Assembly (NCBI GenBank): GCA_934276735.1
Contig: CAKQTG010000002.1
Span: 270,638 to 334,637, forward strand
Direction: 5' to 3'
DNA from: an uncultured Alphaproteobacteria bacterium
Lineage (GTDB): Bacteria > Pseudomonadota > Alphaproteobacteria > Rs-D84
Length of the DNA: 64,000 nucleotides
Position numbers and translations under genes: made by a program. This document shows, piece by piece, positions 4,080 through 28,728 of this stretch. Positions within the stretch are counted from its first letter, which is position 1. Each line of letters opens with the position of its first letter. The notes below the pieces were generated by a model. It was not told the origin of the DNA. It did no database searches and was given only the letters and a program-made list of their open reading frames with translations.

Positions 4080-4712
4080 CTAAATTGCAAGGATTTTCAG
4101 CAACGCGTCCGCGGCGTTTATACTGGCCACCTTTTTAGATGACCCGGTGGCGTCCGCGGTGTGACCCAATGCCGTCACACGCACATGGAAAACCGGACTG
4201 TGCGATGCGCCCGTCTGTTCCAAGAATTCATATACCGGCAATGCACCATCGCCACGTTTCTGGACCAGTTCCTGTAATGCGGTTTTGGCATCTTTGGGTG
4301 CGGTGGCATCGGCCGCCGCCAATTCGCGCCAGAACGATATTATCACCGCGCGCGCCGCATCAAACCCGCCATCGATAAAGATTGCACCGAAAATCGCCTC
4401 CATCGCGTTAGCCATGATATGACGGATACGACCGCCGGTCATATGTCCGTGCCGAATATGCGACGCCAGTTTCAATTTATCAGCAACCGACGCCAGTGTT
4501 TCTGTGGATACCAGCATTGCATGGCGACGCGCCAGTTCGCCTTCGGCCTCGGCCGGGTACATTTCATACAGCAATGCCGCCACCGTCAGTCCCAGCACAC
4601 GGTCCCCAATGAATTCCAGGCGTTCATTATTATGCGCCCCATCGGCCCCCGACTGGGTCAGTGCCAAATCCAATAATTCCGGATTCTTAAACGTGTAATT
4701 CAGTTTTTCCAA
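4080..4712 (-). CDS. rnc: ribonuclease III
   Basis: The ERLEFIGDRVLGL signature box is present, followed by a C-terminal dsRBD-like region. Confidence 0.85.
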   Translation of the reverse strand: MEKLNYTFKNPELLDLALTQSGADGAHNNERLEFIGDRVLGLTVAALLYEMYPAEAEGELARRHAMLVSTETLASVADKLKLASHIRHGHMTGGRIRHIMANAMEAIFGAIFIDGGFDAARAVIISFWRELAAADATAPKDAKTALQELVQKRGDGALPVYEFLEQTGASHSPVFHVRVTALGHTADATGSSKKVASINAADALLKILAI

Positions 4713-8663: not shown

Positions 8664-10463
8664 TTATTTAGAAATAAATCCACCAGACTGCATCTTCCAC
8701 AGGCGGGCATACACGCCACCGCGACGCAACAATTGGTTGTGGGTTCCCTGCTCTATAATCTGGCCATGGTTGATTACGATAATCCTGTTCATATTGCGCA
8801 ATGTTGACAGACGGTGCGCAATTGCGATTGTCGTGCGCCCCGCCGACAGGCGTTCAAATGACGACTGGATTGAAACCTCGGTTTCACTGTCCAGGGCGGA
8901 CGTTGCCTCGTCCAGGACCAAAATCGGGGCATCTTTCAGAAACGCGCGAGCGATTGCGATACGCTGACGCTGGCCGCCGGACATACGCATACCGCGGTCG
9001 CCAACCATTGTGTCGTATTTGCTTTCGGTCGACATGATGAAATTGTCGGCCTGGGCCGCGCGGGCGGCAGTGCGTATTTCGGCATCGGTCGCATTGGTGC
9101 GGCCATACGCGATATTTTCACCAATCGTGCGGTTAAACATCGTCGGTTCCTGGGGGATAAATGCGATTGCCCGACGTAAAGAATCCTGGGTCACGTCACG
9201 AATATTCTGGCCATCAATCAAGATTTCGCCCTGGGTCGGTTCATAAAATCGCAATAACAAATTCACCAGTGTTGTTTTGCCCGCGCCCGAGCCCCCAACC
9301 AGCCCAACGCGTTCGCCGCTGTTTATCGTCAGGTTTAAATTATGCAGCACCCATTTACGTTTATACTTAAACGACACATTGCGGAATTCAATACGCCCAC
9401 AACGCACATGCAATTCGTGCGCATTTGGCGCGTCGGTGATTTCCAGTGGCGCACTGAGTTCTTCGTATGCCTTTTGCGCACTGCCCACTTTTTCAACAAT
9501 CTGGGGGATTTGGTCAACGATACGCGCGATTGTGCCCATCACGCTGAAAAACACCGATGTTGTGAACACGATTTCAGAAACCAATAATTTCCCATGCATA
9601 AACAGCCATACGCACAACAACATCGTTGCGCCAAACGCGACGTCCCACACGAAATTAGGCACCGCCCAGAAAAACCGCTGGACAAAGTAAGAGTGCATAT
9701 GATCCCTGACCCGTTGACGACGTGGGGCAGCCAAATACTGACGTTCGGCGTTTGCGCCGGCAAACAATTTCACCACTGAATAATTGGCCAAACTGTCCAC
9801 CAATTTACCGGCCAGGTGACTGCGCGATTCACTGGCGGTCTTGGACGCACGGTTCATTGGACGTATCAGCAAAATTCCATACACAATACGAAACACGAAC
9901 ACAAACGCAAATATTATCGCAACATATGCGTTCATGCCCATAATCAATCCAACATTTACCAAAATAACCGCGACGGCACCGAATATTTCCATAAAATTCA
10001 GAATCACCGTAAACCCATCGGCAACAAAATTTATCTGGGTATTTAATTTACCCGCCATGCGCCCGGACCAGAACGACATAGACTGGTGCTGGATATAATC
10101 CGACAGAACATCGGATACCTGGTTATCAATCTTGGGCTGCCAATGACCGCGCGCCCACGCACGCAAAACCGTGCACACGTCCAGTAAAATCAACGTTGAT
10201 GCGATTATGGCAATCGTCGGTAAAGCAAAACGGACAAACGATACGCCATCGGGCGGTGTCTGTTCAAACAGCGCGATAAACATACGCTGGAAATTCGGGA
10301 ACAGAACCCCTTCGGACATAACGGCCAGGAACAGCAATCCCCACACCAACAACGCAGCCCAGTGACCACGTGCGGCATATTTTATATAAAACTTCCATAA
10401 CGATTTTGGTAAATTTTGTGACATAGCTTGCCCAATGTTATAAGACAAATGGCGCAAAATCAA
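8664..10463 (-). CDS. ABC transporter permease/ATP-binding protein, MsbA-like exporter
   Basis: A six-TM domain is fused to an NBD with Walker A GGSGAGKT, the signature LSGGQRQR and Walker B ILVLDEATSALD. An alternative start is at 10424 (MSQNLPK). Confidence 0.8.
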   Translation of the reverse strand: MILRHLSYNIGQAMSQNLPKSLWKFYIKYAARGHWAALLVWGLLFLAVMSEGVLFPNFQRMFIALFEQTPPDGVSFVRFALPTIAIIASTLILLDVCTVLRAWARGHWQPKIDNQVSDVLSDYIQHQSMSFWSGRMAGKLNTQINFVADGFTVILNFMEIFGAVAVILVNVGLIMGMNAYVAIIFAFVFVFRIVYGILLIRPMNRASKTASESRSHLAGKLVDSLANYSVVKLFAGANAERQYLAAPRRQRVRDHMHSYFVQRFFWAVPNFVWDVAFGATMLLCVWLFMHGKLLVSEIVFTTSVFFSVMGTIARIVDQIPQIVEKVGSAQKAYEELSAPLEITDAPNAHELHVRCGRIEFRNVSFKYKRKWVLHNLNLTINSGERVGLVGGSGAGKTTLVNLLLRFYEPTQGEILIDGQNIRDVTQDSLRRAIAFIPQEPTMFNRTIGENIAYGRTNATDAEIRTAARAAQADNFIMSTESKYDTMVGDRGMRMSGGQRQRIAIARAFLKDAPILVLDEATSALDSETEVSIQSSFERLSAGRTTIAIAHRLSTLRNMNRIIVINHGQIIEQGTHNQLLRRGGVYARLWKMQSGGFISK

Positions 10464-15570: not shown

Positions 15571-16383
15571 TTATTTTTCATCCAGCCCCTTTAACAAAAT
15601 ATCTTTCAATTCGTTCGGCATCATGCCCGTTGTGGAATAGCCACAGTCAACATGATGAATCTCGCCCGTGACGGCGGATGCCAGGTCACTGAACAGATAC
15701 ACCGCCGCCCCCGACACATCGTCCAGCGTCATGTTGCGACGCAATGGTGTCTGTTCCGCATTCAAGCGCAACATCGCCTTGAAACCGCCAACGCCCGACG
15801 ACGCCAGCGTCATAATCGGTCCTGCCGAAATCGCATTGACGCGAACATTGTCACGCCCCAGGTCGGATGCCAGATAACGCACACTGCTGTCCAAGGCAGA
15901 CTTTGCTACGCCCATAACATTATAATTCGGCACGGATTTTTCCCCACCAAAATACGTCAGGGCAACAATGCTGCCCCCATCGGTCATCAATTTTGACGCA
16001 CGACGAGTTAAGTCAACCAACGAATACACAGAAATATCCATTGTATTCTTGAAGTTCGCGCGAGTTGTATCGACATAGCGACCAGTCAATTCATTTTTAT
16101 CAGAAAACGCAATCGCGTGCAACATGCCGTCCAAATGCCCCCACTCGCGTTCAATGTTCGCAAACAACGAATCCATCTGTTCATCATTTTGGACATTACA
16201 TTCCTGGACAAATTTAGCCCCAATCGATTCGGCCAACGGACGCACGCGACGTTCCAGTGCCGGCATCGCGTAAGGCATCGCGATTTCCGCGCCCATTTCA
16301 TGCGCACGCCGTGCAATTGCCCACGCCATAGACCAATCGTTTGCAACGCCAGTAATCAGAATCTTTTTTCCTTTTAATAACAT
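15571..16383 (-). CDS. fabI: enoyl-ACP reductase (NADH)
   Basis: The product is an SDR with N-terminal GVANDWSMAWAIA. The catalytic Y...K is within the motif SVPNYNVMGVAKSALD. The start was trimmed to MLLKGKK (RBS aagggaag). Confidence 0.85.
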   Translation of the reverse strand: MLLKGKKILITGVANDWSMAWAIARRAHEMGAEIAMPYAMPALERRVRPLAESIGAKFVQECNVQNDEQMDSLFANIEREWGHLDGMLHAIAFSDKNELTGRYVDTTRANFKNTMDISVYSLVDLTRRASKLMTDGGSIVALTYFGGEKSVPNYNVMGVAKSALDSSVRYLASDLGRDNVRVNAISAGPIMTLASSGVGGFKAMLRLNAEQTPLRRNMTLDDVSGAAVYLFSDLASAVTGEIHHVDCGYSTTGMMPNELKDILLKGLDEK

Positions 16384-16474
16384 AATCTTCCCTTTTGTTA
16401 TTGATATTGGACACGACCAATATAGCACCCCTGTTTTAATAATTCTAGTATGAATTACTCCAACAAGATTCTTA

Positions 16475-17707
16475 TTACAAACAATCTCTTAACTCTTTAT
16501 TATATCGTAACATTGTTGGTTGATTGGCAGGATCGTACAATATGTTTTTTTGATCAAAAATTAATTCTACAGCATTACCATGATGATCAATCAACAAAAC
16601 ATCATTGCCTCTAGACCGCATTTCTATATTTCTGTTGCGATTTTGGGTTATTATTGCATGTCTATATGCATCTATGTAAACCATATTTTCCCATTTATCG
16701 AACAACTTATATTGTTCAGGGCTTTCCGCCCAAGACAAAGGAACAACATGATGTAGTTCAAACCCTACTGTTCTTTTAACTTTGTGTTTATTGAAATACG
16801 CTTCCTTCTCAGCAATCGAACGAGTCATAACATCAATTACCTCGCCTGCTTTCGTTTTAATCTTATGTGTTGACAAATTCAAGTCATCCCCCACCACATC
16901 AAAATGAGGACTTTGTGCAAACAAATGATATACTTGATCTATTTTATTTTTCCAATTATGCCAATCTCGCTGTGCAGTCTTATCCCCATCAAAATTTTCT
17001 GGTTTTAATTTATCAGACAAAATCTCTATAACTTTTATTTGCAGATATTTGCCTAACCTGCGATATGTGTGTATCAAATCAACACACTGTTCTAAAGTTA
17101 TAGAAAAACTCGTTCCCGAATCTACGGCTGAAACAAAAAACATGAATTCATATTTTGTAATCGTACCGATATGATATTCAGGCTCCTTCAATAATTGTAA
17201 AGCAATTTCTATATATCCACCCAACAAAGTATCTATCGCCTTTGTAAAAATAAATGATCTATTCAACAGATCTCTTTCTCTTATAAACTTTACGCCATCT
17301 GGTGATAACGACACATATTTTGGCGATATGCGCCCGTACGGCGAAATAAAATTTCTATTCTTGTCATATCTAGTTATCAGCCCCATACGGTGTAAGTCAA
17401 CGAAAATGTTTTTGCGTATTGAGTCTTGAGTTCCCTTTCCAACGGCTGCGTTAACTTCCTCACAAAATCTAGCATAATCATATTCATCTATTGTGTTTTC
17501 TGGCCGTTTCTTTGAATCGGTATCCCTTATTCTCAAAAGTTGATTATTTGGGGCATACCTATCCAAACACATAAGCATTTTATAAATTTCATCCATATCA
17601 TAACGATTATGTTCTGACGAAACACCACCGCGATAATTAACATCATTAACTCTTGCATCTATAAAAGATAACGCCTCGTTTGGACTCAATCCACTAACAT
17701 AAATCAT
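16475..17707 (-). CDS. putative restriction endonuclease (third gene of the RM operon)
   Basis: This 410 aa product has no recognisable motif. It overlaps the upstream methylase stop by 4 nt (ATGA) and shares the AT-rich composition of the methylases. Its size is comparable with Type IIS R proteins. Confidence 0.35.
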   Translation of the reverse strand: MIYVSGLSPNEALSFIDARVNDVNYRGGVSSEHNRYDMDEIYKMLMCLDRYAPNNQLLRIRDTDSKKRPENTIDEYDYARFCEEVNAAVGKGTQDSIRKNIFVDLHRMGLITRYDKNRNFISPYGRISPKYVSLSPDGVKFIRERDLLNRSFIFTKAIDTLLGGYIEIALQLLKEPEYHIGTITKYEFMFFVSAVDSGTSFSITLEQCVDLIHTYRRLGKYLQIKVIEILSDKLKPENFDGDKTAQRDWHNWKNKIDQVYHLFAQSPHFDVVGDDLNLSTHKIKTKAGEVIDVMTRSIAEKEAYFNKHKVKRTVGFELHHVVPLSWAESPEQYKLFDKWENMVYIDAYRHAIITQNRNRNIEMRSRGNDVLLIDHHGNAVELIFDQKNILYDPANQPTMLRYNKELRDCL

Positions 17708-18495
17708 TGCACTACCCCTAGATTATTTTTTGTTAACTCTACATATTTTTTTGATTTGTCAGCACAAATATAGTTTCTATGCAATTTTTTTGCAACAACA
17801 GCTGTTGTTCCACTACCAACAAAACAATCCAAAACAAGTTCTCCTTTATTTGAACTCGCCAAAATCATGCGTTCAATCATTTCCTCTGGTTTTGGTGTGA
17901 CGTGCTGTTGTTTTTGCACTTTGCCATTAACTTTATTTTTGTGACGCTGACTTGTTATGTGCCACACTTCACCACATAACCTGCCATTCGGATTTGGAAA
18001 CCAACGTTTCCCATTTTTTAATATTCCTTTCGTTTTTGCAGCTTCTATTCTGTCTGTAGATTCATAAGGAACACGTATGTCATTGTGATTAAAAGTATAT
18101 TTATTAGACTTTGTAAAAAATAATATACTCTCTTGTCCATTTGCATATTTTTTTGTGGATGTACCGAGTCCATCCCTTTTATCCCAAGTGATCCAATTTT
18201 GGAACACTAGTCCACGTTTTAACAAATGCTGCAAAATAAACGCACAATTAAAAGGTGTATTAAAAATATATATACTTCCTGTATCTTTCAGTTTTGGTAT
18301 AAGTGCGTCTATCCATTTTCTTGTAAATTTCATAAAATCATCATGCGATGCAAATGTGTCCCAATCAGCTTTCCCCATATTGTAAGGTGGATCTATGACA
18401 GCCAAATCAACAGATAAGTTCTTTACCTGTTTCAGGAAGTTTATACAATCCATATTATAAATTTCGTTAATCGCCAAACAACCCATCGCTAGCAC
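17704..18495 (-). CDS. beta-class DNA methyltransferase (N6-adenine type, DPPY)
   Basis: Motif IV is VIDPPYNMG near the N-terminus and motif I is LDCFVGSGTTAVVA near the C-terminus. Confidence 0.75.
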   Translation of the reverse strand: MLAMGCLAINEIYNMDCINFLKQVKNLSVDLAVIDPPYNMGKADWDTFASHDDFMKFTRKWIDALIPKLKDTGSIYIFNTPFNCAFILQHLLKRGLVFQNWITWDKRDGLGTSTKKYANGQESILFFTKSNKYTFNHNDIRVPYESTDRIEAAKTKGILKNGKRWFPNPNGRLCGEVWHITSQRHKNKVNGKVQKQQHVTPKPEEMIERMILASSNKGELVLDCFVGSGTTAVVAKKLHRNYICADKSKKYVELTKNNLGVVQ

Positions 18496-19387
18496 CTAAC
18501 TTTTTATTGATTATATCTTTGTAATGATCATACAATTCATATCCTACAAAATGTCTCTTGTTTTCTTTTGCAACTTTAAGTGTTGTTCCGCTACCCGCGA
18601 AAGGATCAAGTATCAATTCACCAACAAAAGAATACAATCTAATCAATCTGCGAGCTATTTCTTCAGGCATGATAGCTGAATGTATACCAAATGCAAGATC
18701 GCCTTTTCCAGGGATTGGTATGTTCCAAATCTGCTTTGTATATTCGACCCACTCTTGCTGTGTTAGCTGGCTGGCATCTTTTATATCCTGTGGCAACCCA
18801 TTTTCAGGACTTCCTTCTTTCACAAATACTACTATGAATTCACACGAATTCTGGGCATAAAAATTACGTGGATATGGATAACTGCCAAACATCAATTTCT
18901 TGGACGAATTTGTTCTGTTCCATATAAACAAATCCAATAAAAATAATTTTGTGTTTTTTAATATTGACTGTTGTATGTGACTCTGTAAATCAAATATGTC
19001 CCTGTTATAATGCGTGCACATTTGGGATTTCAACATCGGCATTAACGGAACATTTATGCACAACTTACCATTAGGCTTCAACACCCTTTCACATTCTTTC
19101 CAAATTTTTACTAAACCTGCGATATAATCATCAAAATCGGCATAAGCCCCCATATCATCACACTTCCTTTCAGAATGTTTACAATCTTGGTGACCATCTT
19201 TACTGTAATCTTTTATGTTAAAATATGGCGGTGATGTCACAATAACCTGAACCGAATTATCCGGCAATTCTGACATTTTTTCCGAACTTTTGTAGAAAAC
19301 TTTATCAATGTATTCTTTCATTTTCTTTCCTTGCTGAAAACTTAGCCCAAAACAATGGATAAAGTCAAGGGAACAATCAAAAAACAT
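18467..19387 (-). CDS. beta-class DNA methyltransferase (SPPY type, N4-cytosine or N6-adenine)
   Basis: Motif IV is VTSPPYFNIKDY and motif I is LDPFAGSGTT. It overlaps the next methylase gene by 29 nt. Confidence 0.75.
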   Translation of the reverse strand: MFFDCSLDFIHCFGLSFQQGKKMKEYIDKVFYKSSEKMSELPDNSVQVIVTSPPYFNIKDYSKDGHQDCKHSERKCDDMGAYADFDDYIAGLVKIWKECERVLKPNGKLCINVPLMPMLKSQMCTHYNRDIFDLQSHIQQSILKNTKLFLLDLFIWNRTNSSKKLMFGSYPYPRNFYAQNSCEFIVVFVKEGSPENGLPQDIKDASQLTQQEWVEYTKQIWNIPIPGKGDLAFGIHSAIMPEEIARRLIRLYSFVGELILDPFAGSGTTLKVAKENKRHFVGYELYDHYKDIINKKLGASDGLFGD

Positions 19388-20025
19388 ATAAGCCTTTGAT
19401 ATTATATAACACTTGAAAAAATTATTACTTTTGTGTACGATTTTATTGTTTGCCAGAGAGGTTCCTTTTTGGCTTGGTGCATTGCCGTAATACCTATTGA
19501 AAAGGGAGGCAATATAACATTGTGCCCGAGTCCGATGAGCTTGAACTCATCAAATAACAAAAAGGATGTCACCATGGTAAAATACCAAATTGGCAGAAGT
19601 GCTGTGACAGGACGTTTTGTACCAGTTAGGGCTGCGCAAAACAAACCTCGCACACACGTTGTTGAAACTATAAAGAAAAAGTAGTTTTAACGTTCTCTCC
19701 GGCAAACATTATACCACATTTTGACATTTATTTGTATAAAAAACTAAACACACATTAAAAAAATGAAAAAAAGACACATTTGATAACGAAATTGTGGACA
19801 TGATAAAAACCCTTGAATATTGTAAAGTCACCGCCCGCGCGAACATAATGACACACGGTTTGTTTTATAAAGAATTACAATATTACATACGCATTGGTTT
19901 TTATCCTTTTGATTTATGCCAATTCTAGCACACACCCAAAAAATGTCAATTTTTATATAATTTACAACAAATGAAAAAAAAAAACTTGAAATGCATAAAA
20001 AAAAATTATAAGATATGCGGGCTAT

Positions 20026-20101
20026 TCGGGCATAGTTCAGTCGGTAGAACAACGGACTGTTAATCCGTATGTCACTGGTTCGAGTCCAGTTGCCCGAGCC
20101 A
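20026..20101 (+). tRNA. tRNA-Asn (anticodon GTT)
   Basis: A cloverleaf can be drawn with acceptor TCGGGCA/TGCCCGA, D-arm GTTC-AGTCGGTA-GAAC, anticodon arm ACGGA-CTGTTAA-TCCGT and T-arm ACTGG-TTCGAGT-CCAGT. CCA is encoded. Confidence 0.85.
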
Positions 20102-20746
20102 CCTATTTCCGCAGATTTCTGCGGATTTTTTATTATCTATTCTCTACCACGTTTTTATGCAAAATTGGATGAAAGTTGCTCTAAATTGCCCTAGTTATAA
20201 AACAAAAACACATATTTGACACACAGTAATATATACTATTACTGCTGAAATCATCTCTGAAATCACACAGATTTCATACTTGAAACCATAGATGAAATCG
20301 TGATGGAATCATACCTGATTTCAGTATTGATTTCATACCTGAAAAGAGCCTTTTTTTGCCTGCGAAATATGGAACGCTATTCCGTCAGTCACAAAACCAA
20401 AACACACAAAAATCAAACAGTTATAAAAATACGATTTTTCCCCATGTGTCAAATATGTGTCTTTATTTTTGCACTTTTTTATTTTTGAATAAACAACTGG
20501 ACAAAGACAAAAAATAAGCACAAATGCAATGATTACTTAAAGTATTTATAAACGACAAATATCCAACCGGCCTAATAATAGCCCACCCCCAAAAAAAGCA
20601 AACGTGTTTTATATCGCTATGGGGTACAAAATTTACATAAAATATAACCTGCTTCCTCTTGAAAAATTTGAATTCGATCCTATATCTATCTGCACAAAGG
20701 AAGATTTTTATGCGTATATTTATAAACATAATCGGATATTGTACAG

Positions 20747-21262
20747 ATGGAGAATGGCATGCAACCAAAACACCAAGTGTTTTTTAGTTTTCATTTTGCC
20801 CGCGATGCCTGGCGAGCAGGTCAGGTAAGAAACATTAGAGATTTGGACGGCAATACGCCCGTGTCTGATAATGATTGGGAACAGGTTAAACGCGGCGGGG
20901 ATGCGGCGATTCGAACTTGGATAGAAAATCAATTGAAATACAAATCTTGTACAATTGTTTTGATAGGGACGGAAACTGCAAGTCGTCCATGGGTTAATTA
21001 TGAAATTAAGCGAAGTTGGGAGCTTGGCAAAGGCGTGTTGGGGATTTATGTGCATAATTTGCAAGACCGCATGTGCACTCAATCGCCCAAAGGGTCAAAC
21101 CCTTTTGCAAATTTTAATTTGAATGGTGTGCCTTTTGATAAAATTGTTCCAGTATATTGTGTCGAAGATTGGGAACCAAGCACAGAAGTTTATAAAAAAA
21201 TTGCCACAAATATTGGTTCGTGGGTGGAGAACGCAATTAGGATCCGGCAATTATACCCTTAA
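20747..21262 (+). CDS. TIR-like domain protein (DUF1863/MTH538-type, ThsB-like)
   Basis: The N-terminus VFFSFHFARDAWRAGQV and the segment CTIVLIG...SRPWVNYEIKRSWELGKG are hallmarks of the DUF1863 TIR-like family. Confidence 0.65.
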   Translation: MENGMQPKHQVFFSFHFARDAWRAGQVRNIRDLDGNTPVSDNDWEQVKRGGDAAIRTWIENQLKYKSCTIVLIGTETASRPWVNYEIKRSWELGKGVLGIYVHNLQDRMCTQSPKGSNPFANFNLNGVPFDKIVPVYCVEDWEPSTEVYKKIATNIGSWVENAIRIRQLYP

Positions 21263-21267
21263 CAGAT

Positions 21268-21921
21268 ATGGAGGAATATATGAGCAATTATTTTAATATA
21301 AAAGATTTCGATACACTTGAATTAAAATCACCCCCACGGCATTTTAATAATAGTTTTGCGTGTGACGAGTCGATTGGCAAACAGGGTGCGTATGATATAT
21401 TTATCTCCCATAGCTCTGCAAACAGGGAGCTTATCAGCAAATTACGGCAAGTTTTGGAAGAACGGTTTGGTTTGTCCGCATATATTGATTGGGATGAAGA
21501 TGGTGGTACAATAAGAGACGAAATTACAGAAAAAATAAAAAACGCTATGGATCGTTCTAAATCTCTATTATATGTAAAGACATCAGAATCTGACGACTCT
21601 CAATGGGTAGCATGGGAGGTAGGAAGGTTCGATGCAAAAAAACCAGATAATATTGCTGTCTTGCTTATTGAAGATGATAAATTTACCGAGGACACATGGC
21701 GACACAGAGAGTTTTTAAAGGATTATCAAATATTAGATAAAACAGATAATATTAAAGATTTTGTAAATATGGGACATAAAAAATTCTTCACTGCCAAACA
21801 AGCGCGCGACCTATCTTCTAAACTCAATTCTGGTGCAATCGCGGCAGTGGCTGCAATGGGGTCGTTATGCGATGTAACCCCCGGGTTAGGAACGCCAACG
21901 AAATACTTTGGTGACGAATAA
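21268..21921 (+). CDS. TIR domain protein (canonical bacterial TIR, ThsB-like)
   Basis: The sequence YDIFISHSSANRE...SAYIDWDE...SQWVAWEVGRF contains a candidate catalytic Glu in WEVG. The RBS is ggagg, and the gene is 5 nt downstream of the previous gene. Confidence 0.7.
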   Translation: MEEYMSNYFNIKDFDTLELKSPPRHFNNSFACDESIGKQGAYDIFISHSSANRELISKLRQVLEERFGLSAYIDWDEDGGTIRDEITEKIKNAMDRSKSLLYVKTSESDDSQWVAWEVGRFDAKKPDNIAVLLIEDDKFTEDTWRHREFLKDYQILDKTDNIKDFVNMGHKKFFTAKQARDLSSKLNSGAIAAVAAMGSLCDVTPGLGTPTKYFGDE

Positions 21922-21927
21922 TATAAA

Positions 21928-22458
21928 ATGAGAAAATTTACGAACACCAAACCCAGTTTATGGTATTTTAGACTTGCATTTGTAATTTTGAGCAGGTTCC
22001 CTAATTGTAAATGTCGCTGGGGTGCGAGAGACAAATTTATTATTTGGGAATATACGTATGTTTCACAAATAACACACAAGGCGTTCACGTTTTGTTTAAA
22101 TTACGAAATCTATCAAGAGCCTCGAATATGGGTTGTAGAGCCAGACCTTACACAACTTGCAGCTACAGAATTAAAACACGTTTATCCCCAACACTGCAAT
22201 CGTTTATGCTTGTTTCACCCCCACGATGCGCCATGGAATACACGCAAGGATATTATTAACACTATCATTACATGGGCGTTTTTATGGGTCGAATTTTATG
22301 AGTCCTGGAAAATTACAGGTTTTTGGTATGGAGCAGAGGCAGATCATACTCCAATACAAAAAACACACCAAAGCAATTTATCAAGGGAAACGCACCAGAA
22401 AAAACACTATAATAAAAATCTTCCTAAATATTTGAAAAACCATCCAATTAGATACTAG
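21928..22458 (+). CDS. hypothetical protein, third gene of the TIR operon (candidate effector)
   Basis: The 176 aa, Trp-rich product has no recognisable motif. It starts 6 nt after the TIR gene stop. Confidence 0.45.
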   Translation: MRKFTNTKPSLWYFRLAFVILSRFPNCKCRWGARDKFIIWEYTYVSQITHKAFTFCLNYEIYQEPRIWVVEPDLTQLAATELKHVYPQHCNRLCLFHPHDAPWNTRKDIINTIITWAFLWVEFYESWKITGFWYGAEADHTPIQKTHQSNLSRETHQKKHYNKNLPKYLKNHPIRY

Positions 22459-22569
22459 CCGTGTGTTTTATCGATATGACATTTGCTAACTTTTTACAAT
22501 CTTGTTTATAACCTCAATAAAACCATTCCCATTTTTCGCTGAATAAAGCCAGTGCTGTTTTTTTGCCTG

Positions 22570-23079
22570 TTATAGCTTTAGATGGCAGGTCCCTATTGTT
22601 GATAGGACATAATATACTACTAGTATCAATATGATAAAAAATGCAATCTTATAAACACTAAGCGATTTTGAGTTTAGAACATCTGACATACGAATGTACG
22701 TTTGTATATTTGCGATATTCATATCAAATAGAGCACATTTGTCCGCCAACGCATCGGTATATTTTTGGCGATAACACCGTTCCAGCCACAAATAATAAGC
22801 ATCAAACCAGAAAAAGCTAAGTGTCAATATAATTGCTAAAACAAGCAAGGCTACGTTTGGCAGTTTAAAATACAAAGCTATGAGTCCGCCGACAGAAACC
22901 ATAAACCAATTTTTTATCGAAAAGGAATTGCCATTCATTCTGGCAATAATATTCTGCAACATTTCTAAAAATTTAATTTTTTCGCTTTGCATACGATTAA
23001 CGATACTACACATCGATATAAATGCAAGTAAAACCAGAATTTTTGCACAAAAACCGGACTTCCGCAAAAAAACAAGCAC
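22570..23079 (-). CDS. small multi-pass membrane protein
   Basis: There are three to four hydrophobic helices across 169 aa. The start is ambiguous and could be 23079, 23010 or 22992. Confidence 0.4.
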   Translation of the reverse strand: MLVFLRKSGFCAKILVLLAFISMCSIVNRMQSEKIKFLEMLQNIIARMNGNSFSIKNWFMVSVGGLIALYFKLPNVALLVLAIILTLSFFWFDAYYLWLERCYRQKYTDALADKCALFDMNIANIQTYIRMSDVLNSKSLSVYKIAFFIILILVVYYVLSTIGTCHLKL

Positions 23080-23109
23080 AAATGCAACAACTTTTAAAGG
23101 GGTTGCATA

Positions 23110-23375
23110 TGAATTTCAAACATTTTGATGATATTAAACCAAATGATAAGGCACAATTTGAGATGCTATATTTTTCTGCCCAAAGGGCTTTAAGAAGGTT
23201 AGAACTTAAACTAAACAGGATTTATAACGGTAAAACGCCAAAACATTTGCGTATAGAATTAAAACAACTCAACCGCAAACTCACCCAAATGGCAGGCACA
23301 TGGAAAAATATATATTCCCCTTGCATTTACATAGAATTTTTTATATTCATTATGAATGAGAAAGAATACGTATGA
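23110..23375 (+). CDS. small hypothetical protein
   Basis: An RBS (aaagggg) lies 8 nt upstream. The 88 aa basic helical product starts MNFKHFDD.... Confidence 0.3.
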
Positions 23376-23431
23376 AACGGCTCTAAAATAGTTATTGATA
23401 TATTAAAAATATTTGTATATTAGGAGATATT

Positions 23432-23635
23432 ATGAAATTCGGAATCAGAACACCTTCGTTGAGTAAAAGAATTGCAGCAAGAACATCTTTAAAAAGAATT
23501 ATTAGACATAATTTGGGTGTTAAAGTTCCCAGAGGCTTCGGATGGATAACAAACCCTAAAAAAGCTGCCTATAACAGGGTATATAATAGAACCTCTATAA
23601 GCATCGATAAGCTATTCAAGAAAATCTTTAAATAA
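23432..23635 (+). CDS. small basic hypothetical protein
   Basis: A strong RBS (ttaggagatatt) precedes the ATG. The product is 67 aa and lysine/arginine rich. Confidence 0.35.
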   Translation: MKFGIRTPSLSKRIAARTSLKRIIRHNLGVKVPRGFGWITNPKKAAYNRVYNRTSISIDKLFKKIFK

Positions 23636-23650
23636 CATAGGAGTCAAGTT

Positions 23651-23884
23651 ATGAGTTCTACAATATGGCATTCAAATACAGAAGTTCCAGAAAATGGGGC
23701 TGATATTTTATGTATCGGCCATAACAGTAATGGCGACTTTATAATTTATGGCAAGGCAGAACATTATCAAAATAGTTTTTGTATTGTTGACAATGTAGAG
23801 GTTGAATATGCCACTGATATAGACAAGTGGTGTTATGCGAAAGATTTATTGGAATTATTAAAAAAAACTGACAGTTATAAATAA
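23651..23884 (+). CDS. small hypothetical protein
   Basis: The RBS is cataggagtcaagtt followed by ATG. The product is 77 aa. Confidence 0.35.
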   Translation: MSSTIWHSNTEVPENGADILCIGHNSNGDFIIYGKAEHYQNSFCIVDNVEVEYATDIDKWCYAKDLLELLKKTDSYK

Positions 23885-24141
23885 CCCATTAAAAATTCTA
23901 TAATATAACTATGATATGTTGGTACTAGGTACATCGTATATAACCGCATAAATTGCGGTTATATATTTAGTCGTTTTAAAGAACTTGAGAATTGAACGAG
24001 GCGCATAAACTCTCTTTCTTTATTTCAAAACAATTTGTTTTAGTATTTTACAGCTCCTCTAGTACACTTCTAATTTGCTCAGAAACGTTTAACCTGCCAA
24101 CGAGCCCCAGTAGTTTTTTTAAGAATTTGGGAAATTTAAGA

Positions 24142-25836
24142 TTATTTTGATAAGCGCACATCTATTAAATCTTTTATCTCGCTATTCTTGAATAAATTGT
24201 TATATGAAAATTTTGATCCAAGTTCTTCTTGCTTTTTGCTTGCTATATTTTTGACAACCTCTTCTGCTTTTTCTATATTTTTATTAAAAAGAGCCACAAC
24301 TTCTTTTTCTTGGATATTGGGAAGTTTTAAATTAGCTTCTATAGATGATAATGCATACATTATTGCATAAATAGCATGCGAAAAGAAAGTATCTGTTGCT
24401 GCTTTATTTTTTATTTCTTTCCAAACAATGTATGCGTTATACAATTTATTTTGTATATTATTTTCTAGTTCTTTTTCAGAAAAAACAGAATCAAAATACT
24501 GGTTAAAAACAGATATTTTTGACACCTTCGCTTTTCCCGGCTCATTCAAAAACATAGCCACATAAGCCTGTAATAAATTTTCATTAGTTATGCTATCATT
24601 ATAATCTGTTAGTTCCTGTCCAACTTTTACAATTAAAGCAACTCCCTTGGTTTTAAAATACAGAGCTACTTTTTCTTGAATAAGATCATTAGATTTTAAA
24701 TCAACAACATTGATTGGGTTTTGGGAATTTGTTGCTTGTGCTATTTGTTGCATAATATCAGGATCTTTAGTTTTATACACACGCAATAACACTTTCGCCT
24801 TACTTAATTGTTCATAATTTTGTGATTCCCGATAAAATTTTGATAAAGCAGCAACGGTTTGCCCACCGTTAACTATACTCGGGCGCGTCAAAGTCAAGTT
24901 TATTTTTTCCTTATTACCTGTATGACCAGTTTTATAATCATCTGCTATAATTGTAATACCATTATTAAAAAACCAAAACAGTTCTGGTTTTTCACTTGCT
25001 GTTTTAATAATTTCTTTATTAATTTTACTTTTAGGCAAAAGATATCTCACATTGGAATTCAACAAAGCACCTTCATTGTTTTGTTTATAAAAATCAACTA
25101 AGTCACTTAAATATACTTCGGTTATAAACCCCGTTATAACCTGTGGTAAATCTTGTTTTAGAGTTTTGTCATCACAAATAATTTTTATTGTCGCACTATC
25201 AGGAACCTTCTCTTTTAATCCAAAATTTGTACTATCTATAAAATTTACATTTATCTCGTTGTTTATAGCTGTTTCTACAGCATCAGATTGCTTTAACACT
25301 TCCCCAATTATACCATTCGTTGAAAAGAAAACATGTACTCTGAGAGTAGGCCAATCATTTTGCTCACAAACCTCTCTAAGTTTATCAAGTTTTGATTTTA
25401 GCAACAAATTTGTAGTAGATAAATTCTCGCCCTTTTTTATTTTTTCTACGTTTTTTAGACATAATTCTATTTCATCTTGTGTAAATGTATTTTTGGCCTT
25501 TTTAGAAACGTGTTTGGCTTGTACTACAATCACATCCATAAATTTTTCATTAGAATTTGGCAGGGACACTATACTTTCATCATCAAAATATAGCAAATCT
25601 ATTTTGTTATCGCCACTGCCGTCCGTTAAGAAACAAATCGAAGAATTTATATCTACTTTTTTATATTCCATTATAGTAACTACAGCAGTAGCCAAAGAGT
25701 TAATATATTCTTTGTTTTGCAAACCTTGCCCATAATGCTTTTTAGCATATTCAGACTTTTTTATTAGCTTAGTGTTATCTTCTATTAGTCTATTAAATTT
25801 ATTTAAAGCATATTCATTTATGGAGGCATTAGACAT
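24142..25836 (-). CDS. AIPR family abortive-infection protein
   Basis: The N-terminal region reads CFLTDGSGDNKIDLLYFDDESIV, resembling the AIPR DGSGDxGID core. The gene is 564 aa and starts 10 bp after the R gene stop. Confidence 0.6.
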   Translation of the reverse strand: MSNASINEYALNKFNRLIEDNTKLIKKSEYAKKHYGQGLQNKEYINSLATAVVTIMEYKKVDINSSICFLTDGSGDNKIDLLYFDDESIVSLPNSNEKFMDVIVVQAKHVSKKAKNTFTQDEIELCLKNVEKIKKGENLSTTNLLLKSKLDKLREVCEQNDWPTLRVHVFFSTNGIIGEVLKQSDAVETAINNEINVNFIDSTNFGLKEKVPDSATIKIICDDKTLKQDLPQVITGFITEVYLSDLVDFYKQNNEGALLNSNVRYLLPKSKINKEIIKTASEKPELFWFFNNGITIIADDYKTGHTGNKEKINLTLTRPSIVNGGQTVAALSKFYRESQNYEQLSKAKVLLRVYKTKDPDIMQQIAQATNSQNPINVVDLKSNDLIQEKVALYFKTKGVALIVKVGQELTDYNDSITNENLLQAYVAMFLNEPGKAKVSKISVFNQYFDSVFSEKELENNIQNKLYNAYIVWKEIKNKAATDTFFSHAIYAIMYALSSIEANLKLPNIQEKEVVALFNKNIEKAEEVVKNIASKKQEELGSKFSYNNLFKNSEIKDLIDVRLSK

Positions 25837-25846
25837 TTTATTTACC

Positions 25847-26743
25847 TTACCTTAATAGCCCTTCCAACACACCTTTTTGAACCATGTCGATGTTAAGGAT
25901 ATAATCTGTTGTATCAAAAGTATCGCGTAACGGTCGCTGAGTTTTCTGCCAGCCTAAACCATCCGTTATCCATATAAACTGGTGCCCGTCTTTTGTCCAC
26001 TGATGATAAATATCTGCATATTCGCCTGCGGTTGATTTTAATTTTGATCCGCCACCGCCATAGAAATTTGTTTCTATCAGATATAGTTTATTAGGGGTAT
26101 TTATAGCAAAATCAACACGCTTGGATGATTTATTCACAATAATATTTTTACTCCATTTTCTATAAATTTTATCTGCTGTCGCCTGCGCAATATATTCATA
26201 ACCATTACGGTCACAAATATCTTTTATAAAATATTCCATCAAGTTTTCCATTGATGTGCCACTGCGGTTCTTGCGCCCATTTGAATCAAGTCCAACTTCT
26301 ACACCAAGAAAATAATCTGGTATAGATTTAATTGTACGGTCAGATACTAAATCAAGGAAGCCACTTGCTTTCATAAATAGGACACCATCCTCTGCAGACA
26401 TAGGCTTTGAAAAGTCAAAGCATTTAAGTCCAAAAGTTTTTATATCTGAAACAAGTTTAATTTTCTTTTCTCTATCGGCTAACAGTGCCGGTATAACACC
26501 TATAATTTTTGGATATTCCTTTAATAAATCTTTTGCTGCTTTTTCAACATCCGCCTTACCAATCAGAGTATTCAATAAGTTTAGTGCAATCTCTGCTTCG
26601 TGATAATTATTGATAACTTTTGACCAGTTAACAAAATAATCCCAAGATGTTATACTTTCTTTTAGGGTTGAAATCAAATAACCAAAAACGTCATCTTCGT
26701 TCTTGCAGCCCAAAAGTTCATCAAAAATTTTAGAATACTTCAT
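25847..26743 (-). CDS. Type II restriction endonuclease, DpnII/MboI-like (GATC-type system inferred)
   Basis: This is the third gene of a Dam-like M / beta-class M / R cassette with the same order and similar sizes to dpnM-dpnA-dpnB. It overlaps the upstream methylase gene by 4 nt. The product is 298 aa. Confidence 0.5.
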   Translation of the reverse strand: MKYSKIFDELLGCKNEDDVFGYLISTLKESITSWDYFVNWSKVINNYHEAEIALNLLNTLIGKADVEKAAKDLLKEYPKIIGVIPALLADREKKIKLVSDIKTFGLKCFDFSKPMSAEDGVLFMKASGFLDLVSDRTIKSIPDYFLGVEVGLDSNGRKNRSGTSMENLMEYFIKDICDRNGYEYIAQATADKIYRKWSKNIIVNKSSKRVDFAINTPNKLYLIETNFYGGGGSKLKSTAGEYADIYHQWTKDGHQFIWITDGLGWQKTQRPLRDTFDTTDYILNIDMVQKGVLEGLLR

Positions 26744-27525
26744 TTTATTCCTTTCTTTTCAAGGATATCATACAGCCTTTTTTCTGCCAATTCAACAAAT
26801 TGCGTTTCCTGTTCTATACCGACAAACATTCTGTCATATTTTAATGCCGCAACCCCAGTTGTACCACTGCCCATAAAAGGATCTAATATTAAATCGCCCA
26901 GATTTGTACAACATAAAATTATTCTTTCCAATAAATCCAAAGGCTTTTGTGTTGGATGCTTGCCAAAAGTTTTTTCTGATTTTGATGGCGTTGGAATAGA
27001 CCAAACACTGCGCATCTGGCAATCTGGCTTTTTCAAAATATCTTTTGGGAATGAACCACATTTCATGGCATCGTAATTAAATATATGTTTCGCGTTCTTA
27101 CTTTTTCTCGCCCAGATAAGTGTTTCATGGCTCGCGGTAAAGTATCTACAAGACATATTTGGACTAGCATTTGGTTTATACCACGCAACATCATTTAATA
27201 TATGAAAGCCCAACAACTGCATTGCAAAGCCACATGAGTATATACTGTGGTATGTACCACTTATCCAAATTGTGCCATTTGGTTTTAACACTCGCCAGCA
27301 TGCAGAAAGCCACTTTTTATGAAACTCAAAATCATTCATCAGTCCGTGCGACTCGTCCCACTTGCCTTTATTAACCGATACAACTTGACCATTTTGGCAC
27401 GTTATCCCCCCATTTGACAACATATAAGGCGGATCCGCAAAAATCATATCAAAGGTATTTTCTGGAATCTTTTCCAGACACGTTAAGCAATCTTCACAAT
27501 AAAGGCGAAAAGGTTTCTTAGTCAT
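26740..27525 (-). CDS. beta-class N6-adenine DNA methyltransferase (DpnA-like)
   Basis: Motif IV is IFADPPYMLSNGG near the N-terminus and motif I is LDPFMGSGTTGVAA near the C-terminus. Confidence 0.8.
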   Translation of the reverse strand: MTKKPFRLYCEDCLTCLEKIPENTFDMIFADPPYMLSNGGITCQNGQVVSVNKGKWDESHGLMNDFEFHKKWLSACWRVLKPNGTIWISGTYHSIYSCGFAMQLLGFHILNDVAWYKPNASPNMSCRYFTASHETLIWARKSKNAKHIFNYDAMKCGSFPKDILKKPDCQMRSVWSIPTPSKSEKTFGKHPTQKPLDLLERIILCCTNLGDLILDPFMGSGTTGVAALKYDRMFVGIEQETQFVELAEKRLYDILEKKGIK

Positions 27526-28450
27526 AATTAGTTATCAATAACTCACGAATAGCACTGCGCCCGTCTGCATTTGCATTTATCAAACGCTTTGCAAGTATTC
27601 TATTTATATTATAGTCTTGGTATAAATCATCAAAGAATGTGTCTTTTATATAATTTGTTGGATCAGAATTACTTAACATTTGTAAAGCACCCGCTTTATC
27701 ACACGCTTCAAAAACATTCTTAAGGCGAATTTGCTCATCATCATTAAAATCCCCAACAGCATAAGAATTAAACGAAGATGTTTTTCTAATCGGGCGATAT
27801 GGTGGGTCGTAATAGATAAACGTATCTTTATTTACATACTCTTGAACAGAACTAAAATCTGTTTGGATAATAGTCGCAATCTGTAAAGCGTCTGATACAT
27901 TGCGCAAATTTTCTGCGTCTAATATTCTTGGGTTGGTATACTTACCCATCGGAACATTAAACATATTTTTCGAATTAACACGAAACAATCCATTAAAACA
28001 CGTTCTGTTTAAGAATATGGTCAACGCTACACGTCTGACAAACCGCTGATTATAAATATTTGCATCGACGGTTTTGTCCATGTTGTTATATTCATCACGC
28101 CTTGCGTAATAATATTCTTTTTTATCTTCTGTATGATTATACTCTGCACTTATTTTTGTCAGTTCAACTATCAATTTTTCAACATCATGTTTGATAACAT
28201 TATACAGAATAACCAACTCAGGATTGATATCAAACAAGAAAGCCTCTTTGATTGAGAACCGATTATAAATATCGAAGAACACAGCCCCACCACCAACAAA
28301 GGGTTCTATGTATCTTTTTATCCCACCCATTTTCAATTTTAAGGGCAGTTTTTCATCGATTTTATCTAATAGCTGTCCCTTGCCCCCTGCCCATTTTAAT
28401 ACAGGTTTGCACTCAATATAATCCGCTAATTTTGCTGGCAGTGGTGACAA
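27518..28450 (-). CDS. Dam-family (alpha-class) N6-adenine DNA methyltransferase (DpnM-like)
   Basis: Motif I is EPFVGGGAVFFDI near the N-terminus and motif IV is IYYDPPYRP. The Dam family recognises GATC. Confidence 0.8.
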   Translation of the reverse strand: MSPLPAKLADYIECKPVLKWAGGKGQLLDKIDEKLPLKLKMGGIKRYIEPFVGGGAVFFDIYNRFSIKEAFLFDINPELVILYNVIKHDVEKLIVELTKISAEYNHTEDKKEYYYARRDEYNNMDKTVDANIYNQRFVRRVALTIFLNRTCFNGLFRVNSKNMFNVPMGKYTNPRILDAENLRNVSDALQIATIIQTDFSSVQEYVNKDTFIYYDPPYRPIRKTSSFNSYAVGDFNDDEQIRLKNVFEACDKAGALQMLSNSDPTNYIKDTFFDDLYQDYNINRILAKRLINANADGRSAIRELLITNYD

Positions 28451-28671
28451 TTTTTCCTTTCCTTTACGATTTGATATTACAAAATCACGCCACCTAAATC
28501 CAGTAGTTATTTTTTACTTGTGGTTGTTTTTAATTGCTTTTGATTACTTTAAAAACTTTGAACAAAAACACACAGAAACACATAGAAATAGTACACAGCC
28601 GATGTCACCACAAACAAAAAAATCCAAGTTTTCTGCGGAATTCAGCCATTTTTGAAAAAATTGTACAATTC

Positions 28672-28728
28672 ACTGTTAATCTGTATGTCACTGGTTCGAG
28701 TCCAGTTGCCCGAGCCACAAATTCCAGG
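28672..28728 (+). repeat. direct repeat of the tRNA-Asn 3' half (att-type island boundary)
   Basis: The 47 nt sequence actgttaatctgtatgtcactggttcgagtccagttgcccgagccac matches tRNA positions 20056-20102 with one mismatch. Confidence 0.8.

Follow-up and report, generated by a model that had tools for sequence, protein, structure and literature searches.

A probable Type IIS restriction-modification cassette of the MboII family, flanked by fabI and tRNA-Asn, from an uncultured gut alphaproteobacterium

Results

We analyzed a 64,000-nucleotide stretch of DNA from an uncultured gut alphaproteobacterium (the "window"). Neither the DUS motif of Neisseriaceae nor the USS motif of Pasteurellaceae, which we looked for as markers of the host, was present. 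Between fabI and a tRNA-Asn gene, at positions 16475–19387, there are three co-oriented and overlapping genes on the minus strand (Table 1). Based on comparisons to characterized systems, we consider it very likely that these genes form a complete and apparently functional Type IIS restriction-modification (RM) cassette of the MboII family, which is organized as one operon (M2 -> M1 -> R) and whose inferred site is GAAGA. By sequence comparison, each of the three genes has its orthologue in the MboII system of Moraxella bovis. The cassette is an ordinary copy of this well-known RM system, and it matters little beyond annotation.

Table 1. Features of the cassette and its surroundings (window coordinates).
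Feature	Coordinates	Strand	Description
M2 methylase gene	18467..19321	-	284 aa from the likely start, ATG 19321; maximal ORF to 19387; beta-class, SPPY
M1 methylase gene	17704..18486	-	260 aa from the likely start, ATG 18486; maximal ORF to 18495; beta-class, DPPY
R gene	16475..17707	-	410 aa; predicted Type IIS restriction endonuclease, MboII/NcuI/HpyAII family
Predicted DNA-recognition region, R residues 1-290	16838..17707	-	Helical / winged-helix-like subdomains
Putative HNH (beta-beta-alpha-Me) catalytic block, R residues 315-356	16640..16765	-	GFELHH...DKWENMVYIDAYRHAIITQN
Recombinant segment, last ~65 M1 codons and R residues ~1-335	16700..17900	-	Divergent from sister MAG L002; nearly identical to MAG L001
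Non-coding leader upstream of M2	19322..19722	-	Travels with the cassette; inside the 94%-identical block common to L001
tRNA-Asn (GTT)	20026..20101	+	ARAGORN; neighboring landmark, with the cassette on its 5' side

Gene organization

The maximal open reading frames (ORFs) in the ORF list are at 18467–19387 (306 aa), 17704–18495 (263 aa), and 16475–17707 (410 aa), and they overlap by 29 nt (M2/M1) and 4 nt (M1/R), as a first-pass annotation of this DNA had described. The true start of M2 is likely to be slightly downstream of the maximal-ORF start, at the ATG at 19321. This ATG has a Shine-Dalgarno sequence (AAGGA), the orthologous ORF in another metagenome-assembled genome (MAG L001) opens exactly there, and, if M2 is read from there, its register agrees with that of M2.MboII. 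Similarly, M1 likely begins at the ATG at 18486, which has a Shine-Dalgarno sequence as well (AGGTG) and which gives a protein of the same length as M1.MboII. With this start for M1, the M2/M1 overlap is 20 nt. The M1/R junction (CAATGATT) is an ATGA stop/start overlap. On the other side of R, 46 nt separate its stop codon from the end of fabI at 16428, so the placement of the operon between fabI and the tRNA was also correct.

A promoter scan did not confidently place any promoter immediately upstream of M2, and its only find was a stronger consensus promoter further upstream (19949–19922). In the sequence of the leader, we noticed two candidate -10 elements, TGgTATAAT at 19716–19708 and TATAAT at 19406–19401.

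The methylases are orthologues of M1.MboII and M2.MboII

Both of the methylases match PF01555 (E = 2.5e-45 for M2 and E = 1.5e-63 for M1). M2 contains SPPY at residues 30–33 (19223–19234) and FAGSG at residues 241–245 (18587–18601), while M1 contains DPPY at residues 32–35 (18382–18393) and FVGSG at residues 222–226 (17809–17823). Because motif IV precedes motif I in each protein, both have the beta-class order, and the earlier reading of one SPPY and one DPPY enzyme with motif IV ahead of FxGxG stands.

M1 is 66% identical (E = 4e-134) to M1.MboII as encoded at L088:6001-6783, whose product is identical to 1G60_A, and its match to PDB entry 1G60 (M.MboIIA) has E = 1.9e-119. M2 is 64% identical (E = 2e-140) to M2.MboII as encoded at L087:4495-5316; that this locus is authentic is shown by the published N-terminus of the enzyme, MNTIFFKDSR, and by the peptide LKNTKLF. 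From this homology, we assign M1 as the orthologue of M1.MboII, an N6-adenine methylase that targets the GAAGA strand, and M2 as that of M2.MboII, an N4-cytosine methylase that targets the TCTTC strand. The blocks that are best conserved relative to these prototypes (residues 151–180 of M1 and 121–150 of M2) are central, between motifs IV and I, and are 87% identical.

The resemblance extends to the whole locus. MboII (M. bovis ATCC 10900) and its near-identical isoschizomer NcuI (from Moraxella (Neisseria) cuniculi) comprise the same three proteins as the window, with the same beta-class motif order, a C-terminal HNH-type block in R, and the same co-oriented M2 -> M1 -> R arrangement. The contiguous layout in M. 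cuniculi is identical to that of the window, whereas in M. bovis, M2 and M1 are separated by an additional ORF of 217 aa, which is absent from the window. The neighbors are different as well: the Moraxella MboII systems are next to yebC/ilvA-like genes, whereas the cassette in the window, from an uncultured alphaproteobacterium, is next to fabI and tRNA-Asn. This comparison of all three genes with the authentic M. bovis locus bears out the first-pass annotation, which had suggested a Type IIS system like MboII. We rejected an HphI-type system, as every best match among the sequences that we compared is to an MboII-family protein. HphI has one m5C and one m6A methylase, a pair that would not fit two PF01555 enzymes, so the analogy to HphI is probably not apt.

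The endonuclease has an HNH-type block

R shares 39% identity with R.MboII, the 416 aa protein encoded downstream of M1.MboII in M. bovis, along the full length (residues 3–404, E = 6e-98), and it is 40% identical to the corresponding M. cuniculi protein. R also matches a PADLOC profile for Type II restriction endonucleases (PDLC03506, REase_II; E = 1.5e-117) across residues 9–406 of 410. With these matches, R falls in a nuclease family and not in some non-nuclease family. In contrast to an early statement that the 410 aa protein had no motif, R contains an HNH block (Table 1), with ELHH at residues 317–320, NMVYID at residues 341–346, and RHAI at residues 349–352. Across 32 homologues of R, the residues E317, H319, H320, D337, W339, N341, H350, and N356 are invariant. 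In the structural models of R, a strand-strand-helix topology surrounds the HNH residues.

The closest experimental evidence for these residues is from HpyAII of Helicobacter pylori 26695, which, like the window, has two exocyclic methylases and a Type IIS HNH endonuclease. H319, H320, N341, and H350 of R align with H328, H329, N350, and H359 of HpyAII, which were tested by mutagenesis; mutating them abolishes or alters cleavage (PMC7494987). Furthermore, FELHHVVPLS and YIDAYRHAIITQN from the window correspond to the peptides that the primers for HpyAII mutagenesis encode (FELHHIVPLC and YIDAFNHAKISQT). The first HNH element is H-H in the window and in most of the family, as compared to D-H in the Moraxella enzymes.

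Searches against Pfam, NCBIfam, and PDB sequences with the 410 aa protein found no match, and neither did a search of PDB sequences with a profile of the 32 homologues. When each of the 32 homologues was scanned against Pfam (E <= 10), we found only sub-threshold hints of the HNH superfamily (AHH for 6/32 and GmrSD_C for 2/32). R also has weak matches to Cas8f-HNH domains, and these are in the correct register. A Foldseek search with a model of the isolated C-terminal domain (pLDDT 92.6) gave no significant HNH match, so the HNH assignment rests on the conservation of the motif, the topology, and the homology to HpyAII. Overall, the catalytic site of R appears to be of the HNH type, with only weak confirmation from folds and profiles. 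(Alignments of around 57 columns to autotaxin/NPP, below significance, recur in the Foldseek results for the C-terminal domain.)

A listing of the HNH superfamily includes MboII (PMC2441816), while one paper ascribes a PD-(D/E)XK site to MboII, which conflicts with both that listing and our alignment of R. The R protein from the window backs the HNH classification of R.MboII, against the published PD-(D/E)XK statement.

The AlphaFold2 model of R is confident over the whole protein (pLDDT 91.2). For the N-terminal ~280 residues, the best Foldseek matches in the PDB, and the only structural ones, are the recognition regions of Type IIS-type enzymes, namely Nt.BspD6I (E = 1.8e-3 to 2e-2) and BpuJI (E = 1.4e-2 to 2.8e-2), with TM scores of 0.3–0.46. 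These matches are marginal and only suggest that residues 1–290 may be the DNA-recognition region. FokI, BpuJI, and Nt.BspD6I are modular like R, with an N-terminal recognition region of multiple subdomains and a separate cleavage domain, but their cleavage domain is PD-(D/E)XK rather than HNH, they lack sequence similarity to R, and the structural matches have E values of only ~1e-3 to 3e-2. We therefore rejected the idea that R is a FokI-type PD-(D/E)XK enzyme, as the catalytic block is HNH and the resemblance of the recognition domain is marginal.

Predicted specificity and activity

Four properties of the system are inferred: its exact site (GAAGA), which bases are modified, where R cleaves relative to the site, and activity in vivo. 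The characterized enzymes MboII, NcuI, and HpyAII share the target GAAGA/TCTTC. For HpyAII, cleavage is at 8/7, M1.HpyAII forms m6A, and M2.HpyAII forms m4C (PMC7494987). By analogy to these systems, M1 would add an N6-methyl group to adenine in 5'-GAAGA-3', and M2 would add an N4-methyl group to cytosine in the complementary 5'-TCTTC-3'. After replication, each daughter duplex would retain one protective mark, given the asymmetry of the site. R, with its N-terminal recognition region of ~290 residues and its C-terminal HNH nuclease, would bind unmethylated GAAGA and cut both strands at a set offset on its downstream side (in MboII and HpyAII, 8/7 nt); DNA that carries two sites would probably be cut more efficiently. 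The ATGA overlap of M1 with R and the position of R as the last gene would favor making methylase before, or together with, the nuclease.

It is quite unlikely, in our view, that the cassette has the same family and architecture yet acts at an asymmetric site other than GAAGA/TCTTC. The specificity of restriction enzymes can differ at 39% identity, which is the similarity of R to R.MboII, and R is just 36–38% identical to its homologues from Helicobacter (these are homologues from the genus, not HpyAII of H. pylori itself). The R proteins of the Moraxella and Helicobacter types are only 36–40% identical to each other, however, and the R of the window is equally distant from both, so the characterized branches share GAAGA despite being just as divergent. 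The methylases are also far better conserved (64–66%, and 87% in their central regions). Another consideration is that the recognition segment of R is clearly exchangeable by recombination (see below), but in the sister MAG L002, methylases that are 93–98% identical to those of the window are paired with an R that is only 72% identical, and with such similar methylases, that R must still respect the same methylation. Finally, GAAGA is not avoided in the host part of the window (observed/expected or O/E = 1.30), whereas inside 69 cassettes, GAAGA/TCTTC is the most depleted of ten words of the same composition (O/E = 0.70), and it is likewise the most depleted in those cassettes that belong to the same clade as the window's (O/E = 0.64).

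A functional cassette acting at GAAGA is also favored over a decaying or partly inactive system, with active methylases and a silenced or non-functional endonuclease, which we view as very improbable: hpyAIIR is phase-variable in H. pylori (PMC7494987), the cassette contains four A7 tracts (at 18148–18154, 17785–17791, and 17746–17752 in M1 and at 16545–16551 in R), and the scan found no clear promoter, but tracts of A7 are short for phase variation to be efficient, none of the three ORFs is truncated, R has every residue that is invariant in the family and a model that is confident throughout, and the identical R protein is present on 9 contigs. HpyAII is also flanked by 80 bp repeats that allow its deletion and reacquisition (PMC7494987), whereas the window has neither flanking repeats of this sort nor long homopolymer tracts.

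Acquisition and recombination of the cassette

The GC content is 0.33–0.36 across 16250–19750 (~0.34 for the operon), as compared to 0.50–0.58 in ligA/fabI, which agrees with the first-pass annotation of the operon as AT-rich and compositionally foreign. A block of 3.25 kb that contains the cassette (16469–19722) is 94% identical to MAG L001, although ligA/fabI are only 75% identical. This difference in identity, together with the foreign composition, indicates that the cassette was horizontally acquired. Its location relative to tRNA-Asn varies: it is on the 5' side in the window and in L002, but in L001 it is part of an islet, bounded by repeats, on the 3' side.

We saw no recombinase gene or flanking repeats next to the cassette in the window, and when we looked on either side of it for inverted repeats or target-site duplications, we found only short matches of low identity that resemble chance. 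We consider it unlikely that the cassette behaves as a mobile unit on its own, with an endonuclease that evolves separately from the methylases.

Within the cassette, sliding-window identity to L002 is 97–100% at 17900–19100, drops to 53–75% at 16700–17900, and returns to 96–97% at 16400–16700. In contrast, identity to L001 is 99–100% at 17000–17900. From these identities, we conclude that the recognition segment of R (residues ~1–335) was swapped by recombination between lineages whose methylases are 93–98% identical. If the alternative alleles of R differ functionally and yet fit the same methylation, then this would be an example from nature of diversifying selection on a Type IIS endonuclease under a methylation code that stays fixed. 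The alleles might differ in their cleavage offset, in whether they require one site or two, or in their resistance to anti-restriction proteins from phages.

On the other side of tRNA-Asn, there is a separate tRNA-integrated defense island, with a ThsB-like TIR protein, AbiU/AIPR, and a DpnII-type RM system. The tRNA is thus flanked by RM DNA on both sides, as first proposed, with the DpnII-type system on its 3' side. We rejected the possibility that the cassette is part of this island, as the island's direct repeats bound only 20102–28718.

Distribution of the family

Cassettes of the MboII/HpyAII family occur very widely and keep a rigid M2-M1-R layout. We found 518 homologues of R, each of ~410 aa, and these >500 proteins are from Patescibacteria, Chloroflexota, Clostridia, Campylobacterota, Alphaproteobacteria, and even a methanogen. 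A search of a phage collection found no homologue of R. The M2-M1-R order and the tight spacing are kept in ~75 of the best 80 loci, from many phyla. (These 80 loci, from a scan of contigs, do not include Moraxella; the M. bovis locus was reached via the cluster for M1.) As the endonuclease has no Pfam or NCBIfam model, most copies are labelled "hypothetical."

For the host MAG, the predicted methylation is GAAG(m6A)/m4C-TCTTC, which could aid in binning and in linking mobile elements to their hosts in gut metagenomes. Separately, in Moraxella macacae we observed only a solitary M1-like methylase.

An MboII-family cassette between fabI and tRNA-Asn

Judged by sequence homology, the three minus-strand genes between fabI and tRNA-Asn are an MboII-family Type IIS restriction-modification (RM) cassette, comprising an SPPY methylase (M2), a DPPY methylase (M1), and a 410 aa endonuclease (R). 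All three proteins are homologous to those of the Moraxella bovis MboII locus, and the first-pass annotation, which read the genes as Type IIS and MboII-like, was essentially right. The ORF listing reproduced exactly its three co-oriented ORFs with overlaps of 29 nt and 4 nt, and the GC content (0.33-0.36, versus 0.50-0.58 in neighbouring ligA and fabI) agrees with its description of the operon as compositionally foreign. Systems of this kind are well characterised, and a library of defence-system profiles already includes them. Only two features stand out as mildly unusual: the recombinant endonuclease allele and the alternative positions of the cassette around the same tRNA.

Coordinates of the cassette, the tRNA, and the genes of the adjacent island in the window
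Feature	Position	Strand	Remark
R ORF	16475-17707	-	410 aa, ORF listing
M1 maximal ORF	17704-18495	-	263 aa, ORF listing
M2 maximal ORF	18467-19387	-	306 aa, ORF listing
tRNA-Asn	20026-20101
ThsB-like TIR protein	20747-21262		island
Second TIR protein, ThsB-like	21268-21921		island
AIPR/AbiU	24142-25836	-	island
DpnII endonuclease	25847-26743	-	island, DpnII-type RM
N6_N4 methylase	26740-27525	-	island
Dam-type D12 methylase	27518-28450	-	island

The true starts of M2 and M1 are likely to be slightly downstream of the maximal-ORF starts. The ATG of M2 at 19321 is preceded by an AAGGA Shine-Dalgarno sequence, and the orthologous ORF in L001, the closest related locus (from an uncultured alphaproteobacterial MAG), starts exactly there. 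With this start, the peptide LKNTKLF falls at residue 121, versus 117 in M2.MboII. Starting M1 at the ATG at 18486 gives 260 aa, which is the length of M1.MboII. The stop codon of M1 and the start codon of R overlap in an ATGA.

Both methylases match PF01555 (N6_N4_Mtase; E = 2.5e-45 for M2 and 1.5e-63 for M1) and have motif IV before motif I (SPPY...FAGSG in M2 and DPPY...FVGSG in M1), so the beta-class assignment stands. M1 matches the sequence of the M.MboIIA crystal structure (1G60) with E = 1.9e-119. We reached the authentic M. bovis locus via the 90%-identity cluster that includes UniProt P23192 and 1G60_A. M1 is 66% identical to M1.MboII, and M2 is 64% identical (E = 2e-140) to the methylase upstream of it, which has the N-terminus published for M2.MboII (MNTIFFKDSR) and also contains the published peptides (PMC4417176).

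An HNH block in the endonuclease

Searches of R against Pfam, NCBIfam, and PDB sequences were all empty. It has 518 homologues of about equal length, and it is 39% identical, over nearly its full length (E = 6e-98), to the 416 aa M. bovis gene directly downstream of M1.MboII, whose size and position are as published for R.MboII. R also matches the PADLOC Type II REase profile PDLC03506 (416 positions) with E = 1.5e-117. The marginal resemblance of its N-terminal ~280 residues to the recognition regions of Nt.BspD6I and BpuJI is consistent with a modular Type IIS enzyme.

The 410 aa protein had been described as lacking any motif, which is wrong: E317, H319, H320, D337, W339, N341, H350, and N356 are invariant among 32 diverse homologues. 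In AF2 models, these residues lie on a strand-strand-helix unit (pLDDT 91.2 for the full protein and 92.6 for the C-terminal domain). The block FELHHVVPLS...YIDAYRHAIITQN agrees with the peptides encoded by the mutagenesis primers for HpyAII, the Helicobacter pylori isoschizomer of MboII. The HNH residues of HpyAII are H328, H329, N350, and H359, with mutagenesis done on H328, H329, and H359 (PMC7494987), and the HNH superfamily list of Orlowski and Bujnicki includes MboII (PMC2441816). Fold and profile searches lend the HNH assignment weak independent support: the C-terminal profile of R meets Cas8f-HNH domains in the right register at an E of only about 0.3, Pfam hints of AHH/GmrSD_C in the family are sub-threshold, and Foldseek with the C-terminal domain gave no significant match.

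The HNH block is common to HpyAII-type proteins and is also present in R.MboII and in the enzyme of M. cuniculi (the NcuI host), as D-H...N...H with D-H replacing H-H. These two enzymes (L088 6792-8042 and L089 6791-8047) align over their full length with HpyAII-type proteins from three Helicobacter loci (L042, L050, and L052) at 36-40% identity. The shared block and alignment contradict a remark that the active site of MboII is PD-(D/E)XK and unrelated to that of HpyAII (PMC7494987).

Recognition site

We infer that the cassette is specific for GAAGA/TCTTC. MboII, NcuI, and HpyAII all have this site (for HpyAII, PMC7494987). M2.MboII targets 5'-TCTTC (PMC4417176), and the corresponding products in the HpyAII system are m6A in GAAGA (by M1) and m4C in TCTTC (by M2) (PMC7494987). 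Mutual identities among R.MboII, the Helicobacter-type proteins, and the window's R are 36-40%, which places R inside the divergence already known to retain GAAGA. The methylases are much more conserved than R, and their best 30-residue blocks (87%) are central, between motifs IV and I.

Across 69 cassettes, GAAGA/TCTTC was the rarest of ten same-composition words and had the lowest observed/expected ratio (O/E; 0.70 for the full set, 0.64 for the clade to which the window belongs, and 0.76 for the remainder), which is not independent evidence because the cassettes are homologous. The window's cassette contains one such site. We looked for GAAGA avoidance in the host part of the window and found none (O/E 1.30).

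Distribution and layout

Among the best 80 species-level genomes with an R homologue, about 75 encode M2 and M1 directly upstream of it, with order and orientation kept. Hosts include Patescibacteria, Chloroflexota, Clostridia, Helicobacter, Brachyspira, Alphaproteobacteria, Gammaproteobacteria, and one Methanofastidiosum MAG; the family also occurs on small Helicobacter suis plasmids, and the phage records searched contained no homologue. M. cuniculi has the contiguous M2-M1-R layout of the window, whereas the M. bovis locus has an extra 217 aa ORF (L088 5343-5996) between mboIIM2 and mboIIM1. This ORF has no Pfam hit on record and is missing from M. cuniculi, the window, and almost all other loci.

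Three proteins (P0055, P0097, and P0114) are fusions of a PF01555 methylase and an R.MboII-like endonuclease (666-672 aa), that is, single-chain M-R variants. Moraxella macacae encodes a solitary M1.MboII-like methylase (L086 5001-5774; 77% identity to M.MboIIA) with no adjoining M2 or R, possibly an orphan remnant of an MboII system.

Acquisition, position, and recombination

A 3,254 bp block (16469-19722) is 94% identical to L001, versus only 75% for ligA/fabI, which indicates that the cassette was transferred horizontally, with some 400 bp of upstream leader moving along with it. The cassette is on the 5' side of tRNA-Asn in the window and in L002 (from a sister MAG) and on the 3' side in L001 (4543-9882, versus 16469-20131 in the window). 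There, the tRNA lies between fabI and R, and the cassette is enclosed by the intact tRNA (9749-9824) on one side and, beyond M2, by a partial tRNA repeat (4543-4618) on the other. A 294 aa ORF (L001 5073-5957) is in the same tRNA-bounded segment; its N-terminal HYVPRF is presumably DUF4238-like. We found no flanking repeats or mobility genes for the window's cassette.

The window and L002 are 97-100% identical over M2/M1, 53-75% at 16700-17900, and again 96-97% into fabI. The divergent segment covers residues ~1-335 of R and the 3' tip of M1, has sharp breakpoints, and is 99-100% identical to L001. Recombination has therefore swapped the recognition part of R and left the methylases unchanged.

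As the first-pass annotation proposed, acquired RM DNA flanks the tRNA on both sides, with the MboII-family cassette 5' and an island carrying a DpnII-type RM system 3'. This separate island (20102-28718) has inserted at the tRNA-Asn 3' end, and its two boundaries are marked by a direct repeat of 47 nt (20057-20103 and 28672-28718) that corresponds to the 3' half of the tRNA. L002 lacks the island and has an empty site. No integrase or ThsA partner was recognised in the island.

Two overlapping 83 aa ORFs (19433-19684, plus strand, and 19402-19653, minus strand) lie in the leader that separates M2 from the tRNA. The plus-strand ORF has no Pfam match; its C-terminal 36 residues (MVKYQIGRSAVTGRFVPVRAAQNKPRTHVVETIKKK) resemble a small conserved peptide, and both L001 and L002 conserve the two-ORF region (89-99%).
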